Notes: generated from the sequence alone by a model not told the origin. A stretch of 64,000 nt of DNA from an uncultured Gammaproteobacteria bacterium (GCA_964503265.1 CAZCYO010000004.1:162157-226156); one strand, 5' to 3'; positions 47,628-63,959 are shown, counted from the stretch's first letter. Program-made: numbers and translations.

Positions 47628-47655
47628 TTGACAAAGTCCTATAATATGCTATACT
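47628..47655 (+). promoter_or_regulatory. conserved promoter module copy (TTGACA-16-TATACT) driving the leader that contains element A and the SLH gene
   Basis: gcTTGACAaagtcctataatatgcTATACT. Confidence 0.55.
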
Positions 47656-47710
47656 CTGCTGACGTACGCTAAATCATTCTCTCCTCGTGAGGGATTTTTT
47701 TATCGCTACT

Positions 47711-47825
47711 GCACATTAACCCTCCTACGCTTAAAGCTACGGAAGGGTGAACATGCTAAAGTACCATTTTGCTAATAAGAAAGGGCTTGCCCTCTCGAAG
47801 CTTTAGCGAAGTGGGGCACATTAAC
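47711..47825 (+). repeat. element A of the gcacattRac-bounded repeat family (about 96-nt body between 10-nt direct repeats), in the 5' leader of the SLH gene
   Basis: gcacattaac at 47711..47720 and again at 47816..47825. Body is ccctcctacgc-[gcttaaagc hairpin]-tacggaagggt...gggcttgccctctcgaagctttagcgaagtgggg. Confidence 0.6.
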
Positions 47826-48034
47826 AAGAGAGAGTGTATTTTAGAAAAGAATAGTTTTCTAGGTACTACCTGCAGTGTTTCGAATCCACTTCGAGATAGC
47901 GCTGGTGGTGCCTGGAAAGGAGCTAGCAAAGAAAGGAGGAAACATTAGATACGACAAGTCGTCGCATCTTATTCCCTGCTTTCCACGCGCCACTAACTAA
48001 CGTCGTTACTGTATAAATTCGGAGGCGCCAAATT

Positions 48035-48667
48035 ATGTTTCGCCGATTCGCACCCCTAGCGCTCGCGTTGATCCTCACCCTGGGTACTGTTACATCCGCA
48101 CTCGCGGGTGGCTTATACCCGGACGTGTCGGACAACGACAGCCGCATAGTGGCGATCCAGTGGATCACCTCTATGGGAGCCATGACTGGTTACACCGACA
48201 AGCGGTTTGGCGTTAATGACAACGTCACCCGCGGGGAGATGGCAAAAATCCTCGGGGTTATCCTCGGCGTTCAGCCCCAAATCGGGGCTACGTGCTTCAA
48301 CGATATGGGATCCTACGATCCTACGCTGCGAGCGTACGCCTGTAAGCTGGCCCAAATGGGCCTACTGAAAGGCTATGCCGACGGCCGATTCGGGCCAAAC
48401 GATCCAATCTCGCTAACGCAGATGATATCACTCATCGTGAGGGCGAAAGTCGCCTCTGGCGACTGGGTAGCCGTCACGACGGATGATCCCTCGATCTACC
48501 CGAACGTAACGACCATGAGTACCAGGCTCGAGATACTGACGTATCTCGAGCATCAGATTCAGGTGCCCAAGTCGCCCAATGTCCACGGGAATCTGAATGG
48601 AGCGTACGCACCGGTGACTCGCGGCGATGCCGCTTGGTACTTAATGCTTAGCTTCTACAAGACGTAA
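48035..48667 (+). CDS. secreted protein with S-layer-homology (SLH) domains; first gene of the high-GC mosaic region
   Basis: Signal peptide ALALILTLGTVTSALA. SLH-like segments GYTDKRFGVNDNVTRGEMAKIL and GYADGRFGPNDPISLTQMISLIVRA. G+C far above the window background. Confidence 0.6.
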   Translation: MFRRFAPLALALILTLGTVTSALAGGLYPDVSDNDSRIVAIQWITSMGAMTGYTDKRFGVNDNVTRGEMAKILGVILGVQPQIGATCFNDMGSYDPTLRAYACKLAQMGLLKGYADGRFGPNDPISLTQMISLIVRAKVASGDWVAVTTDDPSIYPNVTTMSTRLEILTYLEHQIQVPKSPNVHGNLNGAYAPVTRGDAAWYLMLSFYKT

Positions 48668-48678
48668 GTTCACGGCTA

Positions 48679-48722
48679 GTCCGCCACATAGTGGGGCCTA
48701 CCGGCTCTACTGTGTGGCGGAC
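48679..48722 (+). terminator. long terminator-like hairpin after the SLH gene
   Basis: gtccgccacatagtgg / ctactgtgtggcggac forms a roughly 15-bp stem 12 nt after the stop codon, followed by a C/T-rich tract. Confidence 0.5.
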
Positions 48723-48902
48723 AACGCCACTTTCTTCTCTAAATACAGATTTTTAATACCTTTCTATGAACGAGTAATAATTGCATTACTCCCTTCAAAC
48801 AAAAACTAAATAAAATCGAGTTACTCCTCTCTCTTGTTATAATTTTCCTCATTTGACATCACTTCTCCTCTTTTCTATGCTTATTCTAGGTAGTATTTTC
48901 TT

Positions 48903-48932
48903 CTTGACAAAGTCTTATAGGAGATACTATAC
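48903..48932 (+). promoter_or_regulatory. conserved promoter module copy (TTGACA-18-TATACT)
   Basis: tcTTGACAaagtcttataggagatacTATACT. Confidence 0.55.
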
Positions 48933-49024
48933 TGCCGCTACGTTTTATTATCACTGAATATCTTCATTGCTTGATATATCCGTGACATAAAACAGCATCG
49001 TTACCACCAGCTCAAGCTAAATAA

Positions 49025-49093
49025 GGTTTACCCCTAACGTAGCTTTAGCCCCGATTGAATCGGGGTTAGCGAAGTGGGGCTCTTTAACAAGGC
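49025..49093 (+). repeat. element B, a 3'-half copy of the same family carrying an inserted 16-nt palindrome
   Basis: ggtttacccctaacgtagctttagc[cccgattgaatcggggttagc]gaagtggggctctttaacaaggc. Compare the 3' half of C. Confidence 0.5.
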
Positions 49094-50131
49094 ACACAGA
49101 TTGATATTTTTTGTTTTCGAGAGGAAAACGAGAAAAGGATGACATATTCCCCGTCAGCTAGTAGCTTACAAAGTTGTGTAAATTACTAGCTGATTTGTGG
49201 GAGTATACGATTTGGCGTGATCGTCTACGATCCCAGATCAGTAGAGACTGTCCCCAGCCTCTTCTCCATCCATCCTTCCTCCTCATTTCCTCCTCTATCC
49301 GGGAAGCAGGGAACCCAACCCTGCTTCCCCCCCCTTCTCTTTTGAGAAGATTTACGGCTTAGGAGGTGCCACACTCCGAAAGCTTCAAAAGTAATTTCAT
49401 TACTTTTCCAAGTGTATAAAGGCACTTGTTATTCATATCTGGCTTCTTGCTAGATATGGTGTGTGGGCAGGTGGTTCCCGACACCTGCCCCACTCTTTTC
49501 TGCCATCTTCTTCTCGCCCCGGCGTGGTTTTTACCAAAGCCGGGACGAGATTATACATACTGAGGACCTTCTCATCACTCTATCCATTAGACTCGCACCG
49601 CGGGTCAGGATGGCGGGTTACGACCCGTTACGATGAGAAGTCCTCAGAAGGCCCGGATTCGTCCGAACGATCCCCGGGGGAGTTTTTTCCCCGGAGATTA
49701 GCCTGTTTCAGCTTTCGGAGACAATATCGTCACCGGAGCTGGACTTGTATCTAGCAGGAACTTCTCGCATCACGAGAAACGCACCGGCATAGTAGCCGGT
49801 ACTTTCTCACGTGAGTGAGACCTGCACCTATCTGACGTCGTCAGGAATCCTGGGGTCGGCCTTCTGGCCGACCCCACAATCTCTTACGAGAAGCGAAAGA
49901 AAAAAACGATCTATCATCTGTGTGCCTTACTTTTTTATAACCCCACGCTTCAATTACCGCCTATTTCCCGAATTACGGCCATTATTTGGTACGTTTTCCC
50001 CGACTCGGAGATTTTCATCATAGTCGGTCAGCTATAGCTTTTCTTCTGGTATTCCGTAACGCTCCCCGCCTCGATCATCTTTACTATATAGAAATTTACT
50101 CGTCTCACCACAAGAGCAGAAACCGGACGAC

Positions 50132-50160
50132 TTGACAAAACTATAGGACTGTGATATGCT
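50132..50160 (+). promoter_or_regulatory. conserved promoter module copy (TTGACA-17-TATGCT)
   Basis: cTTGACAaaactataggactgtgaTATGCT. Confidence 0.45.
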
Positions 50161-50464
50161 TCATTTCTAGTTGTGGTTTGGGATATGTGTTGGAGTATCA
50201 GATAACCCTCACGACTTTATAACAGTAAAACGCCCAACATATATCCCCCGACCGTAACAGGCGGGTTTTTTTGTACCTTTTTGCATTTGCGCAGAAAGAA
50301 AACAAATAACTCGGAGCACTTTAACAAGGCAACGGATAAAAAATTAATTGATACTTCTTTACTAAAAGGAGTTCCTGATGCGTACTGTCCACAATATGAT
50401 GGTGCGCGCCAGGAGCTCCTGAATGTGAGGGAGCTAGACAGAAAACTCTTGAAAGGAGTTACTC

Positions 50465-50704
50465 GTGAAAAACATACTCTCAGTTCTCCACTTCATCGCT
50501 GCATTTCTTGCGGTGATCGCAGTGTCGGGAACAATATTCCTCATACTCTTTGGTATTCATGTAGAAGTCCATATTGTCTGCTTTACCGCAGGAATATCAG
50601 GGCTATTCGCTTTCACGATCACGCTTCTCTATGTAGTGTTCGCACTGCCATCTGGAAACCTGGTGTCATCGGAAGTTCCGACCGCGCCTGATAACTCCCG
50701 GTAG
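50465..50704 (+). CDS. small two-TM membrane protein (high-GC)
   Basis: GAAAGGAG upstream. A GTG at about 50462 may be the true start. Two hydrophobic helices. Confidence 0.35.
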   Translation: MKNILSVLHFIAAFLAVIAVSGTIFLILFGIHVEVHIVCFTAGISGLFAFTITLLYVVFALPSGNLVSSEVPTAPDNSR

Positions 50705-50733
50705 TTAGAGCCGCACAGAAAGGATAGAGACAC

Positions 50734-51195
50734 ATGCCACATCCAACATCGAGGCCAACAAGCAGGTTCGCGCTCGTCGCGAGCGTGTTTGCCTTAGTCG
50801 CGAGTATCTCAGTCTTCATCTTTTCCTTCAACGCTAACACAGCCGCGAAGGAGGAATATAACCGCGTCGCAGCACATGCCACGGAGGTCTCCTCTCGGCT
50901 GTTTGAAAACCGCATTAGCGGTAATCTGACTAAGGGGGTGCTCCTCCAGTACTGTGCTATCAGCTGTGATAGCGCCGACTTTACGGAGATCACAGTAGAT
51001 GGCTTCACCGTCGTCAAGTACACGCCTCCCTTTCGGGGAGCATGTGCGCAGATCAGGCGAAGCGGATACATTATCACAGCGCCCTCAATTTCGGTTGAGA
51101 GTCGAGATATGTATCCCCTCAATGAACCACAAATCGCTTACTGCGGGACGTGGTTCTTCGGAGCCAAATTTCCGGAACAGCCAGTACGCAAGTAG
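50734..51195 (+). CDS. membrane-anchored Cys-containing extracytoplasmic protein (high-GC)
   Basis: RBS AAAGGA. N-terminal TM ALVASVFALVASISVFIF. Confidence 0.4.
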   Translation: MPHPTSRPTSRFALVASVFALVASISVFIFSFNANTAAKEEYNRVAAHATEVSSRLFENRISGNLTKGVLLQYCAISCDSADFTEITVDGFTVVKYTPPFRGACAQIRRSGYIITAPSISVESRDMYPLNEPQIAYCGTWFFGAKFPEQPVRK

Positions 51196-51273
51196 CGATA
51201 CTGCTGTTTTCACCCTCTCTAGAGACCCGCGTGGGGGATCTACCGACACACTATCTCTATTCTAGGAGGTCAC

Positions 51274-51483
51274 ATGCAACCATCCGCACAACAAAAACCT
51301 ACTCCCGCAGTGACTGCGGGTAGGATCGCCGAGACGGCGATCCAGACCTGCGCCATACATGGCATTCAAATGCAACCCATAAGGGGTTGGTGGAATGCCA
51401 CTAAGCGTGAGTATGTCAGCGGTGATGTGTGCCCGGAGTGCGAGAAGAGCGAAGGCATCTACACGCCAAAGCTCGTCCAGTAA
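51274..51483 (+). CDS. small Cys-containing protein (possible zinc ribbon, CAIHG...CPEC)
   Basis: RBS TAGGAGG 5 nt before ATG; high-GC. Confidence 0.35.
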   Translation: MQPSAQQKPTPAVTAGRIAETAIQTCAIHGIQMQPIRGWWNATKREYVSGDVCPECEKSEGIYTPKLVQ

Positions 51484-52100
51484 CCCTCAGGAGGCAACAT
51501 GCTATTTCTTGCACTGACGACAGACCCAGAGTATATCCCGATTGATTCGGGAGAAACTCTCGTGTACGCCCTTGGTGTCCTCTTGGTTTGCTGGCTCTTT
51601 TACGAGATCGGCCACTACCGCCGTTAGCATACGGTGGGATGAAGGCTCGTTCTGGTTAACATATCCGTTGCCTTCATCTCTTATTAGTACAATACTGTAA
51701 CGATAAGAGATGAAGTTTTTATGAGAAATAGCTATGATTTCTTCTTCAATTGCGAAGAATGGAAGACTAGTTATTTCATTGCACATTTACAAGGCAACCT
51801 TATACGTATAACTAACTCTCTTCAGATACAAAAAGAGGGCTCATATATGCCGCTTTTACTGTTCTCGGGAAACCAGCAGTACTCCAAAAGCGGCAGGTAT
51901 GAGTCCTCAGAAATGGTCTGGGGAAAAGAAGAAAGGATACCTTCGTGTTCGTGCCGTTTGACCTGATTTCATCGAACTCAGGCACGGATTCTCAAGTGTA
52001 TCTCCTCGTGCTCGCTGCACTAGGAGCATATCTGACAATCGAAGACATCATTCGGAATTGGCGCAAGTAGCGCTAAGAAGACATCTCTACAAGGAGGCAC

Positions 52101-52576
52101 ATGACCACAAAGCAGATGCTCATCATCGCGGCCGTGATCGGTACGCCGATCGGGCTCTGGCTGATCTTCGCGATCATCATCTTCGATGTGTTGACGAAAA
52201 AAGCCCTGAAAGGGTTTGAATTCGTCATCCGACACGCGATGGGCGGCCACTAGCCGTTAGAAAGGAGCATACTATGCCCGACACTGTGAGCATCCTACTC
52301 ACGATCGCGATCGCAGCCATCATCATCGTGGCAATTTGTTTGTTTCGATCTGAAGATGTGAGTAATACCTCACACATCAGCGGCGCTGAGAAGCGCTAAA
52401 GAAAGGAGCGACCCATGTTCGCACGAATCTGGCTGTGGCTCGCACTCGCCCTCGGCCTCGATGACGGCGTGATCTACTCGGATCCTGGGGTGAATTTGGG
52501 CTACGGCTCAATCAACCCCACTCCTGTCAAGTGGAGCGACTCACTTCGTGAGCTGCTCGACGACGGAAAAATCTAG
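52101..52576 (+). other. array of three consecutive small hydrophobic-peptide ORFs (52101..52253, 52274..52399, 52415..52576; 50, 41 and 53 aa), each with its own AAGGAG(G) RBS
   Basis: Each ORF has a strong SD at -6 to -9, one predicted TM helix, high G+C and tight spacing. Confidence 0.35.
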
Positions 52577-52837
52577 CCTTCCTTTCTTCACCATGTTATA
52601 CCTAACTCATTTTCCAACACCCTTTTCCCTAAGACCGAGGCATTTTCGCTTCGTTTCACTGCAGTTTTCTGTAGCGATTTCTTCCGGATTGGGGGGATGG
52701 CAGATGTTTCAGGTTGCCTTACCCCCTATGGCGAGAAATCATTCTCGATATAGGGGGTGAATTTATTAGATTAGAATTGTTTTCTTACTTCTTCAATTGC
52801 GAAGAAAAAGAAAACGGTTATTTCGCACATTAACCCT

Positions 52838-52967
52838 CCTACGCATAAATTCTAAACAGAATTTAGCTACGGAAGGGCAAGACAGTACGCCATTAAGCTA
52901 CTTCTTTGATAGGTTTACCCCTAACGAAGCTTAAGCGAAGTGAGGCACATTAACAAAGCATACGAAT
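52838..52967 (+). repeat. element C, a full copy with an extended hairpin (taaattct-aaac-agaattta)
   Basis: gcacattaac at 52838..52847 and 52958..52967. Upstream conserved hairpin cttcttcaattgcgaagaa at 52790..52808. Confidence 0.6.
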
Positions 52968-53106
52968 ACAGATTTCAGCGCGAGGAGAGGATATCTATCA
53001 CCTCTTTCCGCTGAAATCTGAAAAAATCAGATGAACGATCACTTCGTGAAAGGACTGCCTATGGCTGACTGATCTACTGTCGGATTGTTTAGATAAGGAG
53101 GTTCAC

Positions 53107-53682
53107 GTGTCTTCTCGAAAGGCTCACGCACTCTTTGCTATACTTCTGCTCCTGATCGCATTCATGCCAAGTCCGGCCGCAGCGAGCAACGATGCTCAAT
53201 TCGGTCGGCCGATCGTCGCTCCACAAATCTTGTGGCGCGAAGCGCAGCTCACAACCTGCGCGAACGTCTCTTCGGCGACACCGACATGTATCGTCATCGA
53301 CCTCATGGTCGATAACGATGGCAGCCACATTCAAGAGTTCTCGCTTACCCGCGAGGACGCTCGGAAGAATCGCCGGGCGATCCAAGTTTCGGTGTCTGAG
53401 GACACTAAAGGACTTCGGATCACGGACACCAGCGCGACATTTTCTCGCACCATCAACGCAAAAAATGCCGTGGACGGCAAGGAGATCAAGATCAAAGTCG
53501 ATCTCACCTGGCGTCAGTCAGGACCAGAACGCCCCTTCGAAGGGCCACAGATTCCTGAAGAACCCCGCTTCTTGCGTCAAGCACGCGTGAGCGGGACAAT
53601 CCAGATCGGATCTGAAAAACCGATCACCGTCTCAAGCAACGCTGGCGTTCTCATCCGGTGCATCGCGACACCGGCACAATAG
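53107..53682 (+). CDS. secreted hypothetical protein (GTG start, high-GC)
   Basis: RBS AAGGAGG. Signal peptide ALFAILLLLIAFMPSPAAAS. Confidence 0.45.
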   Translation: MSSRKAHALFAILLLLIAFMPSPAAASNDAQFGRPIVAPQILWREAQLTTCANVSSATPTCIVIDLMVDNDGSHIQEFSLTREDARKNRRAIQVSVSEDTKGLRITDTSATFSRTINAKNAVDGKEIKIKVDLTWRQSGPERPFEGPQIPEEPRFLRQARVSGTIQIGSEKPITVSSNAGVLIRCIATPAQ

Positions 53683-53880
53683 CCTGAAGCTTCAGGTGCA
53701 GATACGATTTGTAAGACAGTGCTGTCTTATATGGGTCAATGACGACCCGTCGTATCTCACTTGTGAGGCCAAAAGGTACATATATTCGTATGCTTTCTGT
53801 CTTCCGATAACATCGGGACTGATGAGTTCTATTCACTGCAAATGCGTAGTGATGAGAACGAAACAGAATTTGATTTACTA

Positions 53881-53945
53881 TCCACTCAATAAACTCGAAG
53901 GGCTCGCCCCTCGAAGCTTTAGCGAAGTGGGGCACTTTGACAAGG
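53881..53945 (+). repeat. element D, a 3'-half copy
   Basis: tccactcaataaactcgaagggctcgcccctcgaagctttagcgaagtggggcactttgacaagg is nearly identical to the 3' half of E. Confidence 0.5.
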
Positions 53946-54086
53946 TATACAGGATTTAACATTCTTTCACGCAAGTGAAAGAGTTGTCTTATATTTTTTT
54001 AACGTGCCGCGAAGTAGGGAGAGGAATACTCCCCTCTCTCTTCTTCGCGGCACTGATAATTGATCGATACGCCTAAGGGGGTAAAG

Positions 54087-54476
54087 ATGCTCAAGGAACT
54101 CCTCAAAAACGATCTGGTCTGTTATGCACTGTCGATCCTCGTTTTCTGTCTTCTCTGGCTGGTAGCAAGGTTGTTACCATCGAAGCTCATGGACGACTAC
54201 AATCCGGATTCAGTCGAGCAATAAAGGAGGTTTATCTATGGTCGACCTGTTAGCTCCACTATTCTTCTTCGGAGGAAGTGGGCTCATCATCGTTCTCATC
54301 TTTCTCACCATTCCTGGACCAGTTCCAGCGTGGTGGGTGGATTTTATTGAGCGGTTTCACCGCACATAAGGAGGACAGGTATGGACGGTCGTACAGTCGA
54401 GCTGATTTTCATCATCGTATGGATCGTGCTCAGCTACCCAGCATACTGCTGGATTCGTGGCGAGCGCATACCGTAA
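54087..54476 (+). other. second array of three small hydrophobic-peptide ORFs (54087..54224, 54238..54369, 54381..54476; 45, 43 and 31 aa), each with an AAGGAGG-type RBS
   Basis: Same organisation as 52101..52576. Each product has one TM helix. Confidence 0.35.
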
Positions 54477-54591
54477 GGAGGCTAATACATGCCTACTGCG
54501 CGTTCACCCCCAGACGAGCGTATGATCCCGTTTCTTTTTCATCTCCCGGCGAGTGCCGGGAGCTCTGAGAGAGAATATCAAGAGAGGTCCG

Positions 54592-55767
54592 ATGGACAAA
54601 ATCTCATGGATTCTCATGATCTTCGGTGTGATCCTCGCGATCATGGTCGTTCCCTACGCCAGGAGGCGTTCGGAACGCAGTCACGAAATGCGTGACCGCA
54701 TCATGCGGTCAACATTGATCCTCGGGATTGCCATCATGGGCGCCCAGGGTCTCGCATTCATTCACCCGGCTTCAGCCGGGGCAGAGCCCTACTATCCGAC
54801 ACAGGTTCACACCTTCGTTCGGAGCGAGGCGCTCCCGCAAAGCTTCAGCTTCACGCCTAATGGCGTGCAAGACTGTGGTTGCGGCGGACTCGCCTCGCTG
54901 AACATGCCACAAGGAAATGTGGCACTAAGCGAACAAGGTCTTCCTTTGGCAACTCGCTACGGCGGGGTACTCACAGTCGTGTTCGGCGAGTCGACCAAAT
55001 TCCGGGTTTCAAGCCCGGATGCCGAGTTGACAATGCAGGTGGACGGGAAACCGTTCGCCAAGACGTTCTATCTCACAGAGATCGGAAAAACCTTGACCCT
55101 GGACATCAAACCAGGTGACAAGGTTGACCGCCTCATGGTGGAGCTCAAGTCGAGCTTCCCCATGGTGAACATTTACGCTGATGAGGCACCCATCCCTGGC
55201 AGCATCTATTTCCCGCAGACCCGGCATAACATCGCCAAGGTATTCCAGTCTTACTGGGAGAACCATGGCGGCGTGAGCGTGAACGGCATGGCCGTCACCA
55301 CGAGTGGGTACGAGCGAAACGGTCCAAATATCTACCTGGTGCAATACTTCGAGCGCGTCCGCCTGGAGTACCACCCGGAGAACACTGAGGAAAAGTACAA
55401 GATCTTGCTCGGCCAGTTCGGCGTCGTGATTCACGGTGGAATCGATCCACCTATTGCGAAGCCTACTCCGAGCCAATACGACGACAGTATCCGGTACTTC
55501 CCTGAGACTGGGCACACCGTCGCGGGACGCTTCCTAACATACTGGAATACCCAAGGCGGGTTGAGCCAGTTCGGCTACCCGATCACCCAGGAATTCTACG
55601 AGCGCCTCGATGACGGGGTATCGCACACCGTGCAATACTTCGAACGCGGGCGCATGGAATTCCACAGCGAGAACAGGGAGCCCTATATGGTGCTGCTCGG
55701 CCAATTCGGCCGGCAGATGGCCGCTATCACAGCGGCTGATCGCGACAGCACCAGCACCCACCGCTAG
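54592..55767 (+). CDS. membrane-anchored extracytoplasmic protein with tandem ~45-aa repeats (F..YW...GG....GYP...EF.ER......HTVQYFERGR.E.H.EN.....LLGQFG)
   Basis: TM near the N-terminus. At least two copies of the repeat, which is shared with 61085..61903; high-GC. The ORF track starts earlier, at 54553. Confidence 0.5.
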   Translation: MDKISWILMIFGVILAIMVVPYARRRSERSHEMRDRIMRSTLILGIAIMGAQGLAFIHPASAGAEPYYPTQVHTFVRSEALPQSFSFTPNGVQDCGCGGLASLNMPQGNVALSEQGLPLATRYGGVLTVVFGESTKFRVSSPDAELTMQVDGKPFAKTFYLTEIGKTLTLDIKPGDKVDRLMVELKSSFPMVNIYADEAPIPGSIYFPQTRHNIAKVFQSYWENHGGVSVNGMAVTTSGYERNGPNIYLVQYFERVRLEYHPENTEEKYKILLGQFGVVIHGGIDPPIAKPTPSQYDDSIRYFPETGHTVAGRFLTYWNTQGGLSQFGYPITQEFYERLDDGVSHTVQYFERGRMEFHSENREPYMVLLGQFGRQMAAITAADRDSTSTHR

Positions 55768-55874
55768 TCGACTGTGATTACTGATAGCATGGTACCCAGG
55801 ATTCACCTGGAGGGAGCTTAGCTCCCCCATGCTCGATGGTCATTGAACTTTTCTTTCTACAAGGAGGGTAACCA

Positions 55875-56168
55875 ATGTCCACGATCGATCTCATCAATAC
55901 CCGCTGGGACGCATACACTCCCAGCACTGAGGAGCCTCCTCGCCCGCTGAACCTTCGATGGTTCTGGCGAACGCTTCTCGCCGTCCTGGATGGCATTATC
56001 GTCATGCGGGACTGCCTCAGCCTCGGGCTGAGCATGCTGATCGTTTTCTTGGAATGGACACACGTCCTAACCAAAGGAAAACGTCGGATCGTGCCTACAA
56101 TCGGCGGGATCTGGATCATGGTGGCCATCACGGTCACCATTCTCGATCACATGTTCTACCCTCGATAA
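55875..56168 (+). CDS. small polytopic membrane protein (high-GC)
   Basis: RBS AAGGAGGG. Three hydrophobic helices. Confidence 0.4.
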   Translation: MSTIDLINTRWDAYTPSTEEPPRPLNLRWFWRTLLAVLDGIIVMRDCLSLGLSMLIVFLEWTHVLTKGKRRIVPTIGGIWIMVAITVTILDHMFYPR

Positions 56169-56619
56169 GACAACGAACCCACGCGAGCCACCCCGCTCAC
56201 ACCCATACTACGGCCTCTGCGCTGTGGAACATGTGCGTGAGCTGACGTAACCCGCCGAGTGTGGATCAAGTAACTGAAAGGAGATTTGGAATCGATATCT
56301 ATCGATTACCGTCTCCCGCCAGAGACTTCCAAATCCCCTCCTGTATACCTTGATCCATACCTTCTCAATAGTATAATTTTTAATTTGAAATTCGAAATGT
56401 TAAATCACTGTTTAAAAATTCAATTTAGTAATACATTTAGATTTGATTAAAAATTTAACATAGTAAATCTACAATTAAAGCAAGCTATAGGCTTATTATG
56501 GCGTGTCCCTTTATTTTTCGTAATAAGTCTATCAATACTAATATCACTACTTCTTATCTGCTTTGTTTTCAGCCTTTTTTACTCTTCAGTAGCATATAAA
56601 AGTACTCTTGCAATTACTA

Positions 56620-56649
56620 TTGACAAAGTCTTATAAGATATGCTATACT
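56620..56649 (+). promoter_or_regulatory. conserved promoter module copy (TTGACA-18-TATACT) 7 nt before the ATG of 56657, predicting a leaderless transcript
   Basis: atTGACAaagtcttataagatatgcTATACTcccatttATG. Confidence 0.55.
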
Positions 56650-56656
56650 CCCATTT

Positions 56657-57349
56657 ATGTTAACAACAAAAAACATTTTACTCGCTACAGGCCTTACTCT
56701 TGGTCTTCTTTCTATGTCTACAACAGCATTTGCTGATTATGGCAATTGCCAAACAACCTATGGTCAATACGGTGGACAAAACTGTAATCCATCAATTAAT
56801 CTGTCAATTGATAAGAAAGTACAAAATCCTTCAGACAATTCATTCGTCGATAACTTAGGCGCAAACGAGACGAAGTACAATGCGTCATCTCCTATTACCT
56901 TTCAGATTAAAGTTACCAATACTGGAACAATCGCTGCTACAAACGTCGTTGTAAAAGACACGCTCCCAGCAACTGTTGATTATGTATCTGGACCTGGATC
57001 TTTCGATACTAACAGTAAAGTATTCTCATATACTCTCGGACAGATTAATCCTAATGAAACGAAAGTGTTTACTATTACTGCAAAAACTCCAAGTGAAGAT
57101 AAATTTGCTTCAAACCCAACCTGCATGACTAACACTGCAACTGTGACTGGTAACAGTGCAAACACTGCGACAGATACAGCTCAATTCTGTGTCCAAAAAG
57201 GAAATCCTACCACGAAAGGTGGAACTCCTGTCTATCCAGCACCTACTGTTAAAAACACACCATCAACTGGACCTGAAATGCTCCCACTGATCGGACTTAT
57301 CGGAAGTGGCTTTATCGGCTCACTTCTTCGAAAACGAACGAGTAAATAA
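56657..57349 (+). CDS. secreted DUF11/CARDB-like surface protein with PSTGPE sorting-signal-like C-terminus (paralog of 43555..44295), low-GC host-type gene embedded in the mosaic region
   Basis: Signal peptide. VVVKDTLPATVDYVSGPG motif. C-terminus KNTPSTGPEMLPLIGLIGSGFIGSLLRKRTSK. The same promoter module as 43555 lies upstream. Confidence 0.65.
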   Translation: MLTTKNILLATGLTLGLLSMSTTAFADYGNCQTTYGQYGGQNCNPSINLSIDKKVQNPSDNSFVDNLGANETKYNASSPITFQIKVTNTGTIAATNVVVKDTLPATVDYVSGPGSFDTNSKVFSYTLGQINPNETKVFTITAKTPSEDKFASNPTCMTNTATVTGNSANTATDTAQFCVQKGNPTTKGGTPVYPAPTVKNTPSTGPEMLPLIGLIGSGFIGSLLRKRTSK

Positions 57350-57379
57350 GCACGTATATTGCCAAAACGACTCGTTCAC

Positions 57380-57403
57380 ATCCTGCGAAAGCAGGATTTT
57401 TTG
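57380..57403 (+). terminator. intrinsic terminator after the DUF11 gene
   Basis: atcctgc-gaaa-gcaggat hairpin followed by TTTTTTG, about 30 nt after the stop. Confidence 0.75.
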
Positions 57404-57519
57404 TATAAAGAGAGAAAAGATCAAACATTGCAAAGCATTACCTTTTCAAATAGGAAAATAAAGGACTCATTTATCATAAAAAATGGAGTAAATTTATAGC
57501 TATGAAGGAGCCGTGAGAC

Positions 57520-57548
57520 TTGACAAATCCTATAGGATATGATATAGT
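57520..57548 (+). promoter_or_regulatory. conserved promoter module copy (TTGACA-17-TATAGT), immediately upstream of a MITE
   Basis: cTTGACAaatcctataggatatgaTATAGT. Confidence 0.45.
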
Positions 57549-57585
57549 TCAGGCACATTCGCACGTTTTAATAAAAATATCTAAC

Positions 57586-57673
57586 GTGTCATCCTCGACC
57601 TGATCGAGGATCTATTAGATAACTCCTTATAAAGGAAATCTCTAATAGATTCCCGTTTTCACGGGAATGACAA
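57586..57673 (+). mobile_element. MITE-like element with GTCAT termini and three hairpins (non-autonomous relative of the GIY-YIG element)
   Basis: tgtcatcctcgacctgatcgaggatc...ctattaga-[loop]-tctaatag...gattcccgttttcacgggaatgaca. Terminal inverted repeats of about 12 nt. Confidence 0.6.
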
Positions 57674-58048
57674 ATTATGTTTACGACCAGAGATAAGACA
57701 AGACTCATCCTCTTCTCTTTTCTCCGAGCGTAAGCCCCGATTAAATCGGGGTAAGCCCGGAATACGAATAGATCGTTCTTTTCTCAATTGCGAGATCAGA
57801 ATATATATATCCGTAGTTCTTTGACAAGGTACGCAATTTTTTAGAAACGCTAATAACTAGTTTGAGAAAGCTTAGAGTTAGATACTGCACGCTCTTCTGA
57901 GGGCGTGCGATACCTAACTCTAAGGTGGTTCGGATAGTGAAATTCATCAGAATTTCTTTTTCTATCCAGCCACCTCTCAAACAACTCTCACGGAGCAGTA
58001 ATGCTTCGTGTCGTCGGATATATTCTTCTCACATCTGAAGGAGGTGCT

Positions 58049-58441
58049 ATGTCCTGGAAAGGTCGATTGGTAGCTTTGCTCCTCGGAGCAGGGTTACTCT
58101 GTCTGGCCCTCTGGGGCCAACCCTCCGACAGGGCGGGTCCCACTCGGGAACCGCCGTTGAGGAGAGTCTCTGATCGTCGTCAACAACAATTCAAGGAGGA
58201 CACATCGATGGATAAGAAGCCCGCACTCAACTGGCTGACCATCGTTCTCGCGATCGTGAGTGCCCTCGGCACTCTGATCTTCGTTCCGCTCGTCATCGTC
58301 CTGATGATGCTCACGGATCAGGCCACCGTCACGGTGGCTATGTTCGTCGGCCTCGTCTACGTGTCGATCATCGCGCACATCGCGCTGCTCTTCGCCATCG
58401 GCTTCCGCAAGAAGTCGGAGGTGGTTAGCCGCGTTCCGTAG
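58049..58441 (+). CDS. small membrane protein (high-GC); may be two cistrons, a signal-peptide peptide and a two-TM protein starting at 58208
   Basis: RBS GAAGGAGG before 58049 and CAAGGAGG before the internal ATG at 58208. Confidence 0.35.
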   Translation: MSWKGRLVALLLGAGLLCLALWGQPSDRAGPTREPPLRRVSDRRQQQFKEDTSMDKKPALNWLTIVLAIVSALGTLIFVPLVIVLMMLTDQATVTVAMFVGLVYVSIIAHIALLFAIGFRKKSEVVSRVP

Positions 58442-58490
58442 TTCCAGTGCACAGTTCGTGCACTATGATACTCACAGGAGGAACACTAGA

Positions 58491-59294
58491 ATGAATGCCC
58501 GACGCCGACCGTTCGCGATCTTCGCCGCCATGTTGGCGGTGTTGGTCTTGCTCGCAGGATGCTCGTTCGGCACCGCGACGCCGACCCCCTCGGGGGCCGC
58601 GCCCGCAGCCACAACGGATCCCACCGCACCCGCGGCGACGACCGTCCCGGTCACGCCAAGCTCCGCGCCCAGCGCGGCGCCGACGTTGACCCCGTATCCG
58701 ACCCAGGTTCCGTTGCCAACCCAGGCACCGCTACCGACACTCACCCCCTACCCCACGCAGGCACCGCCCGCGGCGGCCATCGCGCCGACCGCAACCGCGG
58801 TTCCCTCGCAACCGGGTGGGACTAAGCCATCTGCCGCTCCGGCGGTCAAGACCCTCCCCGAGGGTGTCACCGACCTAGGCAATGGTGTCGGGTGCGTTGA
58901 CCCGAAGGTCGTCGCCAAGATCATCAACCGCTATCACGCGGCTGGTAACGATCCCGGTCCGGCGGCCCGCGAACTCGACACGCTGTTCGACCAGAGCGCC
59001 TCGCAAGGGGTGTTCATTGGTCAGCATGCTGCCGACGTCAACTTCACCTTCCGCCCGGCCCCCCAAGAAGGTGGTTCGGGCAGCATCGTCTTCTGGCACA
59101 ACGCCCTCAATGGCGGGCCCAACAAGCTCGACACCGGGCCGAACGCCAAGATGATGGGACTGTTCCTGCAAGGCACCTACGGGATCTACGGCGCGTGGGA
59201 TACCCACGTGAAGCTCGTCAACAATGACGGGCGGTCCGCGTGGACCTGCAGCTACCTGAATCCCGAGCAGATGCTGGATTACTGGGGCAAGTAG
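58491..59294 (+). CDS. lipoprotein with long Pro/Ala/Thr-rich linker (very high G+C, roughly 70-78% in places)
   Basis: RBS CAGGAGG. Lipobox LLAGCS. PT/PA-rich low-complexity region typical of proteins from high-GC Gram-positive or Chloroflexi-like donors. Confidence 0.5.
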   Translation: MNARRRPFAIFAAMLAVLVLLAGCSFGTATPTPSGAAPAATTDPTAPAATTVPVTPSSAPSAAPTLTPYPTQVPLPTQAPLPTLTPYPTQAPPAAAIAPTATAVPSQPGGTKPSAAPAVKTLPEGVTDLGNGVGCVDPKVVAKIINRYHAAGNDPGPAARELDTLFDQSASQGVFIGQHAADVNFTFRPAPQEGGSGSIVFWHNALNGGPNKLDTGPNAKMMGLFLQGTYGIYGAWDTHVKLVNNDGRSAWTCSYLNPEQMLDYWGK

Positions 59295-59337
59295 CCCCTT
59301 TCAGCATCGCGTTTCTATCACCCGCGTACCCTAGTCA

Positions 59338-59368
59338 TCGGGGTCGGCGATTAATTTCGCCGACCCCA
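59338..59368 (+). terminator. terminator-like GC hairpin after the lipoprotein gene
   Basis: ggggtcggcg-attaattt-cgccgacccc has a perfect 10-bp stem and no U-tract. A similar stem ggggtcggcc-ttct-ggccgacccc occurs at 49849..49872. Confidence 0.4.
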
Positions 59369-59419
59369 GTTCCCTTGTAGAGAAGCATTTGTTTCTCTCC
59401 AGAGGTACTGTCTATTTTC

Positions 59420-59548
59420 ACTGTCATTCTGGATTTACCTGTCATCCTCGACTCGATCGAGGATCTATATGATACATCCTATAAGGAACTATCCAAAAGA
59501 TTCTCGTTTTCACGAGAATGACAAATCTAAGAATCAGGATGACAAATA
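59420..59548 (+). mobile_element. nested or composite MITE of the same family
   Basis: Outer termini ctgtcattctgga...atcaggatgacaa enclose inner tgtcatcctcgactcgatcgaggatc...ttctcgttttcacgagaatgacaa. Confidence 0.5.
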
Positions 59549-59563
59549 TTTAGAAAGGAGCAT

Positions 59564-59809
59564 ATGAATACTAATAACAACATCGTTTTAATCGCAGGAA
59601 GTTTCGTAGTCGCAGTGATAATCGCAGCGTTTACATTCTCTTCTGTAAATAAAAGTGAAGCTAAGCAGCAAGCAGTAACATCTTGTATGCAGGTTGCACA
59701 AGTACAGTCACAAACAGCTAAAACAGCTGATGACACTGTCTATACGACCACGTACAAACTTCCTATCGAGGAATGGTACAAGCGTTGTATGAAAGAAAAA
59801 GGATATTAA
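59564..59809 (+). CDS. small secreted/membrane protein (low-GC, host-like)
   Basis: RBS GAAAGGAG. N-terminal hydrophobic helix. Confidence 0.4.
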   Translation: MNTNNNIVLIAGSFVVAVIIAAFTFSSVNKSEAKQQAVTSCMQVAQVQSQTAKTADDTVYTTTYKLPIEEWYKRCMKEKGY

Positions 59810-59993
59810 TAGACGGAAAGCGTAAGGGATTTTTCCTTTTCGCTTTCCGATCTGTCCGCTGCCCCCGCGACATGCTCGGAGAAGAAAGCATGAAATACCT
59901 TTTTTCAGCTCTCTTCCCCAAGCGTTTATTCGCCAGGGGATTTTTTTTGTCTAAGCCTATGCATTTGCGCAAAGGCAGAAGACATAAAAAATC

Positions 59994-60123
59994 GCACATT
60001 GACCCTCCTTCGCATAAATTCTAAAAAGAATTTAGCTACGGAAGGGTAAATGTAATTTAGTACCCACTCAATAAACTCGAAGGGCTCGCCCCTCGAAGCT
60101 TTAGCGAAGTGGGGCACATTGAC
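59994..60123 (+). repeat. element E, a full copy whose two bounding repeats both read gcacattGac (co-varying with each other)
   Basis: gcacattgac at 59994..60003 and 60114..60123. Hairpin taaattct-aaaa-agaattta. Confidence 0.6.
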
Positions 60124-62933: not shown

Positions 62934-62939
62934 TATCTA

Positions 62940-63294
62940 CCTGTCATTCTCGACTCGATCGAGAATCTATAAGATAGCACCATATAAATCTTTAAATTCT
63001 GGATTCTTTGCCTCGATTAACTCTAATTTCCAAGCACGGTTCCAATGCTTCAACTGTTTTTCTCTTACAATTGCATCATGAACATTCTGATATTCTTCAA
63101 AATATAATAGCTTTGTAATGGTATATTTATGTGTAAAACCTTCCGTAAATTTATGTTTATGTTCGTAGATTCTTGTAATTAAGTCGTTTGTTACTCCTAT
63201 ATAGAGTGTTTGGGGTTCACTTCCTAGAATATAGACAAAATACATAAGTATATGGAATTATCTAAGAGATTCCCGATCAGGTCGGGAATGACAG
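62940..63294 (+). mobile_element. full-length hairpin-bounded element encoding the GIY-YIG protein, presumed autonomous parent of the GTCAT MITEs
   Basis: Left end ctgtcattctcgactcgatcgagaatctataagatag and right end tatctaagagattcccgatcaggtcgggaatgacag match the MITE arms at 57586 and 59440. The GIY-YIG ORF replaces the central loop. Confidence 0.6.
62967..63245 (-). CDS. GIY-YIG nuclease-domain protein (UPF0213/YhbQ-like), carried inside a hairpin-bounded mobile element
   Basis: MYFVYILGSEPQTLYIGVTNDLITRIYEHK contains the GIY-(10)-YIG motif; 92 aa. Flanked by the GTCAT-type terminal hairpins of the MITE family. Confidence 0.7.
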   Translation of the reverse strand: MYFVYILGSEPQTLYIGVTNDLITRIYEHKHKFTEGFTHKYTITKLLYFEEYQNVHDAIVREKQLKHWNRAWKLELIEAKNPEFKDLYGAIL

Positions 63295-63296
63295 TA

Positions 63297-63959
63297 CTAA
63301 TTATTTTTCTTTTTAACAATCCATCGTCCAAAAAAGAATATCCCCCCGATCGTCACTATCCAGCCTAGTACCATGAGGCGCTCTGGGGTATAAAATACGT
63401 AGAGGGTTTTACTGCCGGTTACTCCGCTCATTTCATAACAGTTCGCAAAACCGTCACATTTACTTGAGGAGTAGGATTTCCCTAGGCCGAAGAGCACTCC
63501 CATCCAGCTATCATAGAGCTTCCACTGGGAATCAAATCCTTCGTTAAAAAGAAGCATGCTTTTTTCGTTCGCCTTAAGGTTCGTTACTGACAATTTCCAC
63601 AGGGATGGTAAGAGATGTGTGCTTTTAGTGACATCAGCAACATGATAGGTAGCAGTCGTATTACCTGGACTGAGTGACAACTCTTTCCAGGCACTCGGAT
63701 ATGGCTGAAAAGAAAAGCCGCTAAGAAGCATCATTCCTTCGTTTTCAGAATCTTGGTGGATCGAAATCTCTTTCATCGCGGTATCAGAAAGGCCAGGAAT
63801 TCCTCCGAAATAGCCATATGCTGTTTGTAACGGTGCTTTTTCAAGTTGACTGGTTATTTTTTCATTTGTTCTGGTCTGAAAAAGAGAGTCGTACCATAAT
63901 TCTGGATTTTGGTATGTTTTAAATCCTGGCACATCGGGATATCCCTGCTGAAGCGACAA
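63297..63959 (-). CDS. hypothetical extracytoplasmic protein with C-terminal TM anchor
   Basis: C-terminal helix LGWIVTIGGIFFFGRWIV followed by KKKNN. The N-terminus may extend beyond the window. Confidence 0.35.
   Translation of the reverse strand: MSLQQGYPDVPGFKTYQNPELWYDSLFQTRTNEKITSQLEKAPLQTAYGYFGGIPGLSDTAMKEISIHQDSENEGMMLLSGFSFQPYPSAWKELSLSPGNTTATYHVADVTKSTHLLPSLWKLSVTNLKANEKSMLLFNEGFDSQWKLYDSWMGVLFGLGKSYSSSKCDGFANCYEMSGVTGSKTLYVFYTPERLMVLGWIVTIGGIFFFGRWIVKKKNN

Follow-up and report, generated by a model that had tools for sequence, protein, structure and literature searches.

The Correia/NEMIS elements of Neisseria and the RUP and BOX elements of Streptococcus pneumoniae are co-transcribed bacterial MITEs which fold in mRNA. 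Like the family described here, they are ∼100 to 150 bp long, contain no ORF, carry terminal inverted repeats and a target duplication, are present at many intergenic sites, the ends being conserved and the middle variable or modular, and form hairpins in their transcripts. Insertion sequences of the IS1111-attC group and REP-targeting IS share with our family a specialization for a short, conserved site recurring in an array, a single orientation and, in our reading, mobility; they are autonomous, kb-sized elements which make little or no target duplication, whereas the element described here is ∼100 bp and has a 10-bp duplication. PATEs of the IS200/IS605 family and REPINs are also small and strand specific, with subterminal or doublet hairpins, but they make no target duplication. 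Finally, the DUF1874 motif is a structured motif in consecutive intergenic regions which has been discussed as a possible unusual attC (PMC5737381).

We analyzed a 64,000-nucleotide stretch of DNA (the window) from a Patescibacteria (CPR) genome, which holds three full (A, C, and E) and two partial (B and D) copies of a 95- to 140-base folded DNA/RNA module sitting at a conserved 10-base box, 5′ of foreign, high-GC gene blocks. This module is previously undescribed. It departs from Correia/NEMIS, RUP, and BOX in that it duplicates one specific, functionally conserved 10-bp box rather than TA or a loose target, occurs in a single orientation, is assembled from separable 5′ and 3′ modules, includes a ribozyme-bearing variant, and has no known partner IS. 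The first-pass annotation of this DNA had proposed a site-specific MITE, an att-like site, or a leader RNA; the first of these is favored here, while the analogy with integron attC drawn for the second does not hold in its anatomy. We consider the best reading, with a probability of about 0.5, to be a nonautonomous, MITE-like element that inserts site-specifically, duplicates 10 bp of its target, and is co-transcribed as a structured leader; the data favor it over both a functional leader RNA and an att-like module.

Copy A begins with the box GCACATTAAC (47711..47720; + strand, as are all boxes, module parts, HP-U hairpins, and promoters given below), continues with a 95-nt body (47721..47815) in which a linker joins the 5′ hairpin P1 (tip of 9 nt) to a 3′ hairpin, and ends with the same box (47816..47825). 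Copy C carries GCACATTAAC at 52825..52834 and again at 52945..52954, on either side of a 110-nt body (52835..52944) with a 25-nt hairpin at the P1 tip, and is preceded by a hairpin of the type termed HP-U (52789..52806). Copy E has GCACATTGAC at 59994..60003 and 60114..60123 and a 110-nt body (60004..60113); the HP-U-type hairpin before it (59946..59965; cctatgc ATTTGC gcaaagg, with one mismatch) was read directly from the sequence. The coordinates first assigned to A (47711..47825) and E (59994..60123) were correct, but copy C, originally placed at 52838..52967, lies 13 nt lower, at 52825..52954.

Exact matches to GCACATTRAC number six in the 64-kb window, all on the + strand, against 0.31 expected, and six or more were reached in 0 of 100 shuffles. 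They form three pairs, 47711/47816 (A), 52825/52945 (C), and 59994/60114 (E), and the search agreed with the earlier observation that E carries the G variant in both end repeats. When five full copies from other contigs (L034, L073, L079, L080, and L031) were counted with A, C, and E, the two flanking 10-mers were identical in 8/8 independent copies representing six box variants, one position having since mutated in L034. For the first seven copies, this identity was reached by 2 of 5040 permutations (independent-draw probability 6.5e-7); L031, the eighth, stands outside these statistics. The repeat is exactly 10 nt because the bases flanking it differ. Its variants in full copies differ at positions 3, 5, and 8 only, the positions at which unoccupied boxes vary, while the element ends stay constant. 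As a control, neighboring boxes in the window with a whole gene block between them were identical in 0/7 pairs. The end repeats are thus conserved beyond chance, and the proposal that they are a duplicated target is supported, as they vary among copies and not within one. The duplication has a fixed length of 10 bp in all eight copies; a compact full copy, L064, has no 5′ box. In L034, the last base of the 5′ repeat changed to T together with its P1 partner to A, keeping the helix and breaking the repeat identity, which supports a historical rather than a selected origin of box identity.

A single box, GYWCWTTRAC-AA, is a conserved leader motif heading high-GC blocks clade-wide, usually ∼30 nt 3′ of a hairpin with an AWWTGC loop (HP-U). 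Such single-box sites are common, and many blocks carry the box alone, the element being optional. The empty site suspected earlier is real: its box, GCACATTTAC (51781..51790), belongs to a site paralogous to the one that C occupies, and the HP-U hairpin upstream (51742..51759, loop AATTGC) is 78% identical to that before C. Two further unoccupied boxes are present in the window. One, GCACTTTAAC (50316..50325), follows an HP-U hairpin placed 31 nt before it (50277..50298, 8-bp stem, loop ATTTGC), and its upstream region is paralogous to that before E; the other, GTTCTTTGAC (57816..57825), heads a 63% GC block behind an HP-U hairpin with loop AATTGC (57782..57795). Filled and empty states were found only at paralogous sites, in two pairs with a common upstream hairpin and spacer, C with 51781 and E with 50316; between strains, the one close strain (L086, 98% identical) shows the same occupancy.

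In the MITE-like reading, the body (∼95–138 bp) would be an insert specialized for a single target, the 10-bp box GYWCWTTRAC, set in a conserved leader in the order HP-U hairpin or terminator, ∼10 to 30 nt, box, and AAGG..., a leader that heads the high-GC blocks of variable arrays within a small clade of Patescibacteria. An enzyme making a staggered cut at insertion would duplicate the box, so that one intact copy would keep its normal distance to the upstream hairpin and the other would stay joined to the downstream leader. Given that insertion is always sense-oriented, the element would be co-transcribed, its + strand folding as two hairpins, and in RNA it might, more tentatively, define or process the 5′ end of the cassette mRNA.

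The body features listed in the first-pass annotation were all present: a start ccctcc(t/a)cgc, a hairpin of 9 or 25 nt, gctacggaaggg, a middle that varies, and an end cgaagcttWagcgaagtgRgg. Bodies are 93 to 138 bp, noncoding and without an ORF, with several copies in the window, and alignment of the full copies showed conserved ends and a variable middle. The termini form imperfect inverted repeats (CCTCCTACGCATAAAGC versus CCCACTTCGC-TAAAGC), in which 13 of 17 aligned positions match, with a single gap. For A, L073, L079, and L080, this score was reached by 3 to 9 of 2000 shuffles; C, E, and L031 give a weaker signal, and L034 gives none. Copies are mosaic, as in E, which is 93% like C in its 5′ half and 93% like D in its 3′ half; these are the closest halves, and no copies are near-identical. 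The copies are old, and lacking near-identical members, the family shows nothing of recent movement.

The family was found in Patescibacteria-type contigs only, always in sense orientation at a transition from low to high GC, and the element matched no phage or plasmid. Several observations count against the MITE-like reading. Neither the 64-kb window nor the surroundings of 12 related loci yielded a transposase or recombinase, and no larger element with the same ends, as an autonomous partner IS would have, was seen in the window or related loci. The 3′ module stands alone at the same place in at least five loci (B, L076, L077, L081, and L033) and is joined there by a hammerhead in two more (D and L085), and the L064 copy without a 5′ box abuts the 3′ end of a tRNA-Ala. 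The restriction to one orientation and one target, to the nucleotide, across all copies is unusual for DDE-type MITEs, and the lack of near-identical copies and the selection on a single-stranded fold described below also weigh on this side.

The + strand folds as two hairpins, adjoining both boxes, with a few compensatory changes. In P1, CCUCC pairs with GGAAGG and inserts are tolerated at the tip; a C-G pair of P1 became U-A in L034, and the closing stem of the 3′ hairpin changed in compensatory fashion in L085 and L031. Roughly half of the positions never vary, among them a symmetric UAC/UAC internal loop. Such compensatory changes, together with the G.U pairs of the + strand, point to selection for the single-stranded fold, which is more than a selfish repeat needs. 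As annotated previously, each copy lies upstream of a high-GC block, in every case in sense orientation. The accompanying proposal of transcription as 5′ leaders gained from the consensus promoters located 56 to 90 nt upstream of A (TTGACA-16-TATACT, 47628..47655) and B (48904..48933) but was weakened by a terminator-like hairpin followed by T7 (47678-47701) between the promoter and A; L031 and L034 likewise have a tRNA-Ala gene and a terminator upstream of the element. With these terminators in place, transcription of the element as a leader is plausible and no firmer.

The partial copies had been described as 3′ halves, and both do carry the 3′ module, but with additions. B (49000..49078) is a 3′ module alone; its 3′ strand contains an additional, inserted hairpin (ccccgattgaatcgggg), and the box GCTCTTTAAC (49079..49088) follows. 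D comprises the linker and 3′ module (53870..53931, 93% identical to the corresponding part of E) and the box GCACTTTGAC (53932..53941), preceded, in place of the 5′ module, by a type III hammerhead ribozyme (53794..53869; match to RF00008), so D is not a simple truncation. The hammerhead has an intact CUGAUGA...GAAA core, three stems with stem III open, and a GUC site, with cleavage predicted after C53801. It aligned across the full RF00008 model (E=0.0012) at 32.3 bits, below the gathering threshold of 48.5 because of a 25-nt insert in stem II which ends in an HP-U hexaloop, a feature in which D differs from RF00008. L085, the second of two loci (and two genomes) with a hammerhead and 3′ module at the same place, has the same architecture and covarying stems: stems I and III contain one compensatory pair each, 93% of cells were paired versus 25 to 55% when partners were slid, and, by eye, distal stem II was wholly replaced (CACTGC/GTAGTG versus ACAAAGAC/GTCTTTGT). 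Only D and L085 share the full set of hammerhead features; A, C, and E have no ribozyme core and keep only the hairpin matching stem III, the 3′ strand of the C tip hairpin, AAACAGAATTT, also being the 3′ end of the D hammerhead. We conclude that the 5′ module of D is, by its sequence, a canonical type III hammerhead with predicted self-cleavage, and its occurrence at the P1 position in one lineage suggests that the module also acts in RNA.

The least unlikely alternative is a purely functional, nonmobile, cis-acting leader RNA whose two-hairpin module processes, stabilizes, or regulates cassette mRNAs. In making 5′ ends, a hammerhead or an upstream tRNA could then stand in for the module, its 5′ part could even be a new self-cleaving or RNase-recognized motif, and the second box would be kept because the upstream hairpin must be followed, and the cassette preceded, by a box. 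The sense orientation of all copies, the promoters upstream of A and B, the + strand fold with its G.U pairs and compensatory changes, and the invariant positions with their internal loop all accord with such a leader, as do the presence of a hammerhead or tRNA-Ala at the 5′-module position in other copies and the recurrence of the HP-U hairpin of leaders at the stem II tip of both hammerheads. However, this explanation leaves box identity in 8/8 copies unaccounted for while boxes elsewhere in the array differ. Pairing between box and linker is short and no better for cognate (-1.9 kcal/mol) than for noncognate (-1.3 kcal/mol) combinations, and leaders work without the element, single-box sites being common. 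The Rfam scan suggested in the first-pass annotation (4227 covariance models, with the DUF1874 motif included) returned nothing for the element, whether the gathering threshold or a limit of E = 10 was applied.

Less probable still is an att-like recombination module of a cassette-capture system, in which a site-specific recombinase would use the box as its crossover (overlap) sequence. The family does resemble integron attC sites and the DUF1874 motif, the latter offering a precedent (PMC5737381): a structured repeat recurs from one intergenic region to the next in an array of small genes of foreign composition, its variable stem sequences keep pairing, and the box acts as a module junction. 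An integron attC as such was rejected: the GYWCWTTRAC end repeats are direct rather than inverted R''/R′ (RYYYAAC/GTTRRRY), no GTTRRRY partner is present, and no integrase is nearby, so the earlier analogy fails on anatomy. No adjacent intI, attI, or Pc was found (PF00589 had no match in the window, the sole hit being the SAM-like N-terminal domain of a 3998-aa protein which lies 20 kb away), and instead of one site 3′ of each promoterless cassette, the element is optional, lies 5′ of genes, and accompanies units with their own consensus promoters. In a looser att-like arrangement, the body would be a cargo-less mini-cassette whose circle carries GCGAAGTGGGG-CACATTAA-CCCTCCTACGC, that is, 11-bp inverted arms on either side of an 8-bp spacer, and box identity would follow because the overlap requires homology. 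The variable box positions 3, 5, and 8 all fall within this putative spacer, and the nonidentical position 10 of L034 falls in an arm. In L085, the box is a breakpoint between modules, with homology to the window 51781 site upstream and to the window 50316 leader downstream; strains differ by the presence or absence of whole high-GC units, and copies lie next to tRNA-Ala, with a partial tRNA 3′ repeat in L034. Against this arrangement, neither the window nor the related loci contain an integrase, unoccupied sites lack the inverted arms, and the one strain-level indel mapped (L097 versus L098) does not have boxes at its limits. The boxes on the two sides of large blocks are nonidentical (the 0/7 pairs above), so the identity rule fails for real cassettes. 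Moreover, DNA stiffness disfavors double-stranded circles of ∼105 bp, which makes the required circle physically implausible.

We regard as doubtful, with a somewhat slimmer chance again, the broader proposal that CPR bacteria have a new gene-capture platform which works without an integrase and whose sites of landing and expression are marked by the box and HP-U hairpin, with the element optional. Such a platform would put foreign high-GC genes under native promoters, and the 5′ module of the element would represent a new RNA-processing motif, perhaps even a new class of self-cleaving ribozyme, for which the hammerhead and an upstream tRNA could substitute functionally.

A single-strand HUH/Y1-type element (IS200/IS605-PATE or REPIN-like), in which subterminal hairpins at both ends would be recognized on one strand and cleaved next to their feet, the 3′ box lying 10 nt beyond the 3′ hairpin foot, is very improbable. 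It would fit the hairpins that directly abut the boxes at either end, the strand specificity of folds with G.T/G.U pairs, the strictness of orientation and target, and the occurrence of single-hairpin units (the 3′ module alone; the compact L064 copy). In the IS200/IS605 family, however, the target is not duplicated and the right-end motif moves with the element, so that 8/8 identity with a variable target is unexpected. No guide-like complementarity was found between box and linker, cognate duplexes being no better, and neither the window nor the related loci showed a Y1 transposase or RAYT.

As a separate observation on the high-GC blocks, the best named relatives of their foreign genes are Chloroflexota, possibly a host lineage.

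The 10-mer GCACATTRAC occurred at six sites in the 64-kb window, all on the + strand, against 0.31 expected, and no shuffle reached six. These sites formed three pairs, at 47711/47816 (copy A), 52825/52945 (copy C), and 59994/60114 (copy E), each pair of boxes (general pattern GYWCWTTRAC) enclosing the body of one full element. The first-pass annotation had described A, C, and E in this way, and its description was borne out, including the A-to-G change in both box copies of E, apart from its coordinates for C, which were 13 nt too high. It had also listed B and D as 3' halves; both do carry the 3' part of the element alone (boxes at 49079-49088 and 53932-53941), except that in D this part follows a predicted hammerhead ribozyme at 53794-53869. 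The empty site it had proposed at 51771-51799 was confirmed, at 51781, as a single box followed by AAGG whose upstream hairpin and spacer are common with C; the single box at 50316, also followed by AAGG, shares these features with E, and a third such box lies at 57816. Box-like sites were limited to 47.7-60.1 kb of the window, and two further pattern matches, which fall in a duplicated coding segment, are chance matches.

We compared the direct repeats of eight independent full copies: A, C, and E, and those at related loci on other contigs (L073, L079, L080, L031, and L034). The flanking 10-mer is GCACATTAAC in A and C, GCACATTGAC in E, GCACTTTGAC in L073, GCACTTTAAC in L079, GCTCTTTGAC in L080 and L031, and GCTCTTTAA(T/C) in L034. 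At the variable positions 3, 5, and 8, the two 10-mers of a copy agree in 8/8 cases, and the adjoining bases on the outside differ, which sets the repeat length at exactly 10 nt. When the first seven copies were permuted, only 2 of 5040 arrangements did as well, and independent draws from the pooled box composition gave 6.5e-7. As a control, neighboring boxes across a whole gene block of the window were identical in 0 of 7 pairs. Unoccupied boxes vary at the same positions as those flanking elements, and the element termini (CCTCCTWCGC ... GCGAAGTGRG) show no variation in step with the repeat. We conclude that the pattern of the box pairs is as expected from target duplication. A single pairing partner, with the linker serving as internal guide for both boxes, was rejected as the cause of the co-variation because box-linker duplexes are weak, cognate combinations being no better than non-cognate ones; the only common extension is that, in most copies, 4-5 further pairs between the 5' box and the linker lengthen the 5' hairpin of the body (P1). 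A parse in which 3' module-box and box-5' module are the ends of a large mobile unit was also discarded, since boxes across large blocks are never identical.

The body is 93-138 nt long, and its ends form imperfect inverted repeats in which 13 of 17 aligned positions match, with one gap. On the + strand, P1 at the 5' end pairs ACCCUCC with GGAAGGGU around a GC/GC clamp and a UAC/UAC internal loop that never varies; its tip ranges from 5 nt (L073, L080) and 9 nt (A) to a 25-nt hairpin (C, E) and a 45-nt structure (L079). L034 shows one compensatory change in P1, from C-G to U-A, which involves the last base of the box. At the other end lies a 3' hairpin of ∼20 bp whose 3' strand, CGAAGCUUUAGCGAAGUGGGG, is almost invariant, and whose 5' strand differs between copies yet keeps its complementarity, in slightly different registers and with G.U pairs; its closing stem carries compensatory changes in L085 (CCUACU/AGUAGG) and L031 (CUAUUU/...GUGAG). 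In the compact copy of L064, the two termini pair with each other. A repeat finder gave 93% identity between C and E over the common 5' part (58 nt) and 93% between D and E over 76 nt of the common 3' part; E is thus a mosaic of a C-like 5' half and a D-like 3' half.

Just upstream of the 3' module of D, the type III hammerhead model of Rfam aligned end to end with 53794-53869 (+ strand), with E=0.0012 and 32.3 bits against a gathering threshold of 48.5, the score being lowered by an insert within stem II. Both the core CUGAUGA...GAAA and the GUC site are preserved, with cleavage predicted after C53801. The same ribozyme is present in L085, which is 79% identical to D across the region; stems I and III differ there by compensatory changes, and the distal stem II keeps its pairing in a completely different sequence. 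By its core, architecture, and covariation, we judge that D is predicted to contain a hammerhead, though one below the Rfam threshold. D and L085 have no P1, and degenerate box-like 10-mers, found by reading, lie just upstream. The tip hairpin of C and E has a 3' strand, AAACAGAATTT, that exactly matches the hammerhead of D at its 3' end, so the tip hairpin is probably a relic of stem III. A predicted self-cleaving ribozyme on the sense strand argues that the region is transcribed and that 5'-end processing matters. Standing in place of the 5' hairpin of the element, the hammerhead offers a concrete way to test how mRNA 5' ends are processed in these organisms, and also a setting in which a new RNA-processing motif might come to light.

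A miniature insertion element is the simplest explanation for exact 10-bp repeats that always match, for inverted termini, for ends that are conserved around a variable middle, and for the filled and empty paralogues. It would insert in a single orientation, through a cut at the box staggered by 10 bp, and duplication of the box would keep both of its relations, to the upstream hairpin (HP-U) on one side and to the leader of the gene block on the other, which would make the insertion tolerable. That the insert is also selected as a single strand, most probably as leader RNA, is shown by its + strand fold, by the compensatory changes, and by the ribozyme variant. We put the probability of this combined reading, an insertion element that is also selected as a single strand, at about one half. 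Against it stand the frequent copies with only the 3' module, the strict orientation and target, the box-less copy of L064, and the absence of young copies. These points keep three rivals in play. A functional RNA that never moved would account for the fold and its compensatory changes and is the most probable of them, though unlikely. Somewhat less probable still is an att-like recombination module. A circle or excision junction would read GCGAAGTGGG-box-CCTCCTACGC. We found no local recombinase or transposase in the window or in 12 related loci. The only integrase-related signal was an N-terminal phage-integrase SAM-like (core-binding) domain (E=7.7e-18) in a 3998-aa protein (15351-27347, + strand), in which no catalytic domain was detected; the architecture of this protein is syntenic in L087, L097, and L108. 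Integron attC was rejected, as the repeats of the element are direct, not inverted, and there is no intI; three defining features of attC were checked in the element and none was found. A likeness of the box region to Xer/dif sites, seen by eye, consists of a TGTTAA core and a TATACA hexamer in D in the wrong order for dif, and we take it as a coincidence. An HUH-type single-strand element, the third rival, is very improbable. The element works most like co-transcribed bacterial MITEs, but its target is exact to the nucleotide, its orientation is always the same, its modules are separable, and one form bears a ribozyme. The family is a clean case of a functional leader motif duplicated with nucleotide precision.

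An exact-pattern scan of a genome collection returned 69 matches in total, which is chance level, and re-screening them with a profile built from the full copies left four real loci (L031, L033, L034, and L064); a metagenome scan added eight more. All true loci are on low-GC, CPR-like contigs, where the element always sits at a rise in GC and points toward the high-GC side. Searches of viral contigs, phage records, and plasmids gave no true matches, and the proteins of the gene blocks were not phage-like by PHROGs. The element matched no Rfam model, whether at the gathering threshold or with E relaxed to 10, so that a known small ribozyme or any other Rfam family was rejected for the body of A, C, and E (221 nt searched at E=10); neither Rfam nor the literature searched describes this element family. 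The strain-level comparison of filled and empty sites yielded only strains in the same state (L082-L086). L033 (300-620, - strand) contains tandem, strongly diverged 5'-like and 3'-like modules without boxes, one with a hairpin inserted at the same point as in B, and the family is therefore broader than exact-pattern scans show. To our knowledge, CPR/Patescibacteria have hardly been explored for mobile elements or cis-regulatory RNAs.

The box and the hairpin upstream of it predate the element and are more widespread. In 25 non-redundant box sites, G1, C4, T6, T7, A9, C10, and A11 never vary and no conservation extends past position 12, which argues that the box is not a two-hexamer promoter; its use as a sigma-70 -35 hexamer (TTGACA) was likewise rejected, the promoter scan being negative at every box. 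HP-U has a hexaloop A(A/T)(A/T)TGC closed by C-G on stems of 4-9 bp that are all different. Many boxes have an HP-U 29-34 nt upstream, and in both hammerheads the tip of stem II is one; it was found in the window at 50277-50298, 51742-51759, 52789-52806, 57782-57795, 59946-59965, and 53833-53859, and in L085 at 47-68, 735-758, and 12145-12162. Elsewhere in the window, the hexamer was stem-flanked in 0/69 and 5/89 cases, a strong enrichment in the array, and HP-U is probably a recognition hairpin for some factor. In L085, the sequence upstream of one box is homologous to one window site and that downstream to another; this split homology marks the box as a junction where modules have been exchanged. 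Relatives without the element (L097, L104, and L110) still carry box-headed high-GC units. One complete unit (promoter, box, and genes) lies between the M23 peptidase and rho genes in L097 (5778-8273) and is absent from L098 (8256-8273) and L101; strains with and without it have an identical DUF11 protein, and its edges are not at the box and show no clean repeat. The element directly follows a tRNA-Ala(TGC) gene in L034 (7566-7643), L064 (4451-4527), and L031 (3885-3958, - strand); the 3' end of this gene is partly repeated at 7722-7745 in L034 and abuts the element in L064, where there is no 5' box.

The window comes from a Patescibacteria/CPR genome of ∼40% GC and encodes LeuRS, ComEC, Rho, an M23 peptidase, two giant ORFs, a VirD4-like ATPase, and DUF11 surface proteins whose homologues come from records naming Levybacteria or Patescibacteria. 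Eight + strand blocks of 47-63% GC span 47.8-62 kb; their genes, which have strong Shine-Dalgarno sites, code for small membrane and secreted proteins. Such blocks, here and in L078, L081, L097, and L110, are embedded in genomes of 30-40% GC, each with a native-type promoter and a box. A 404-aa protein (54553-55767) has a repeat domain ∼50% identical to Thermomicrobiales and Chloroflexia proteins, and this Chloroflexia-like domain together with the GC contrast suggests repeated acquisition of foreign, possibly host-derived, genes. The wider phenomenon indicated is one of strain-variable arrays of promoter-equipped, compositionally foreign blocks under one conserved box, and the main interest of the element is that it marks this system of apparently foreign, box-headed gene units in CPR genomes. 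The secreted and membrane proteins of the blocks are candidate players in how episymbionts interact with their hosts.

Consensus promoters (TTGACA-16 to 18-TATACT) were located by the promoter scan at 47628, 48904, 50132, 56620, and 57520. The first is followed, just before A (47628-47701), by a terminator-like hairpin and T7 (47678-47701) within ∼25 nt of the likely start, and the promoter at 50132 by a similar structured leader of ∼100 nt with a terminator at its end; these leaders may be attenuators or small RNAs. A mini-ORF, MRTVHN(M/L)MVRAR..., with its own Shine-Dalgarno site is kept in the post-box leader of both the window (50380-50424) and L085 (147-206), and the genes that follow it differ between the two. 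The block after B (49094-49900, + strand) has no convincing ORF and folds into an unbroken run of ∼15 near-perfect hairpins closed by long-range helices (MFE -364 kcal/mol versus -241 +/- 7.8 for shuffled sequences, z = -15.8). It matched nothing in Rfam and had no homologue in the other loci; a large structured ncRNA is one possibility, an array of palindromes another. Hairpin repeats that come in pairs (gtcatYctcga..tcgagRatc and cccgttttcacgggaatgaca) occur dispersed over the region at 57580-57675, 59433-59526, 62935-62976, and 63249-63311 and flank a GIY-YIG endonuclease gene (62967-63245). Elsewhere in the window, an identical 151-nt segment occurs at 8290-8440 and 10920-11070, within the paralogous ORFs 7573-8994 and 10191-11624.
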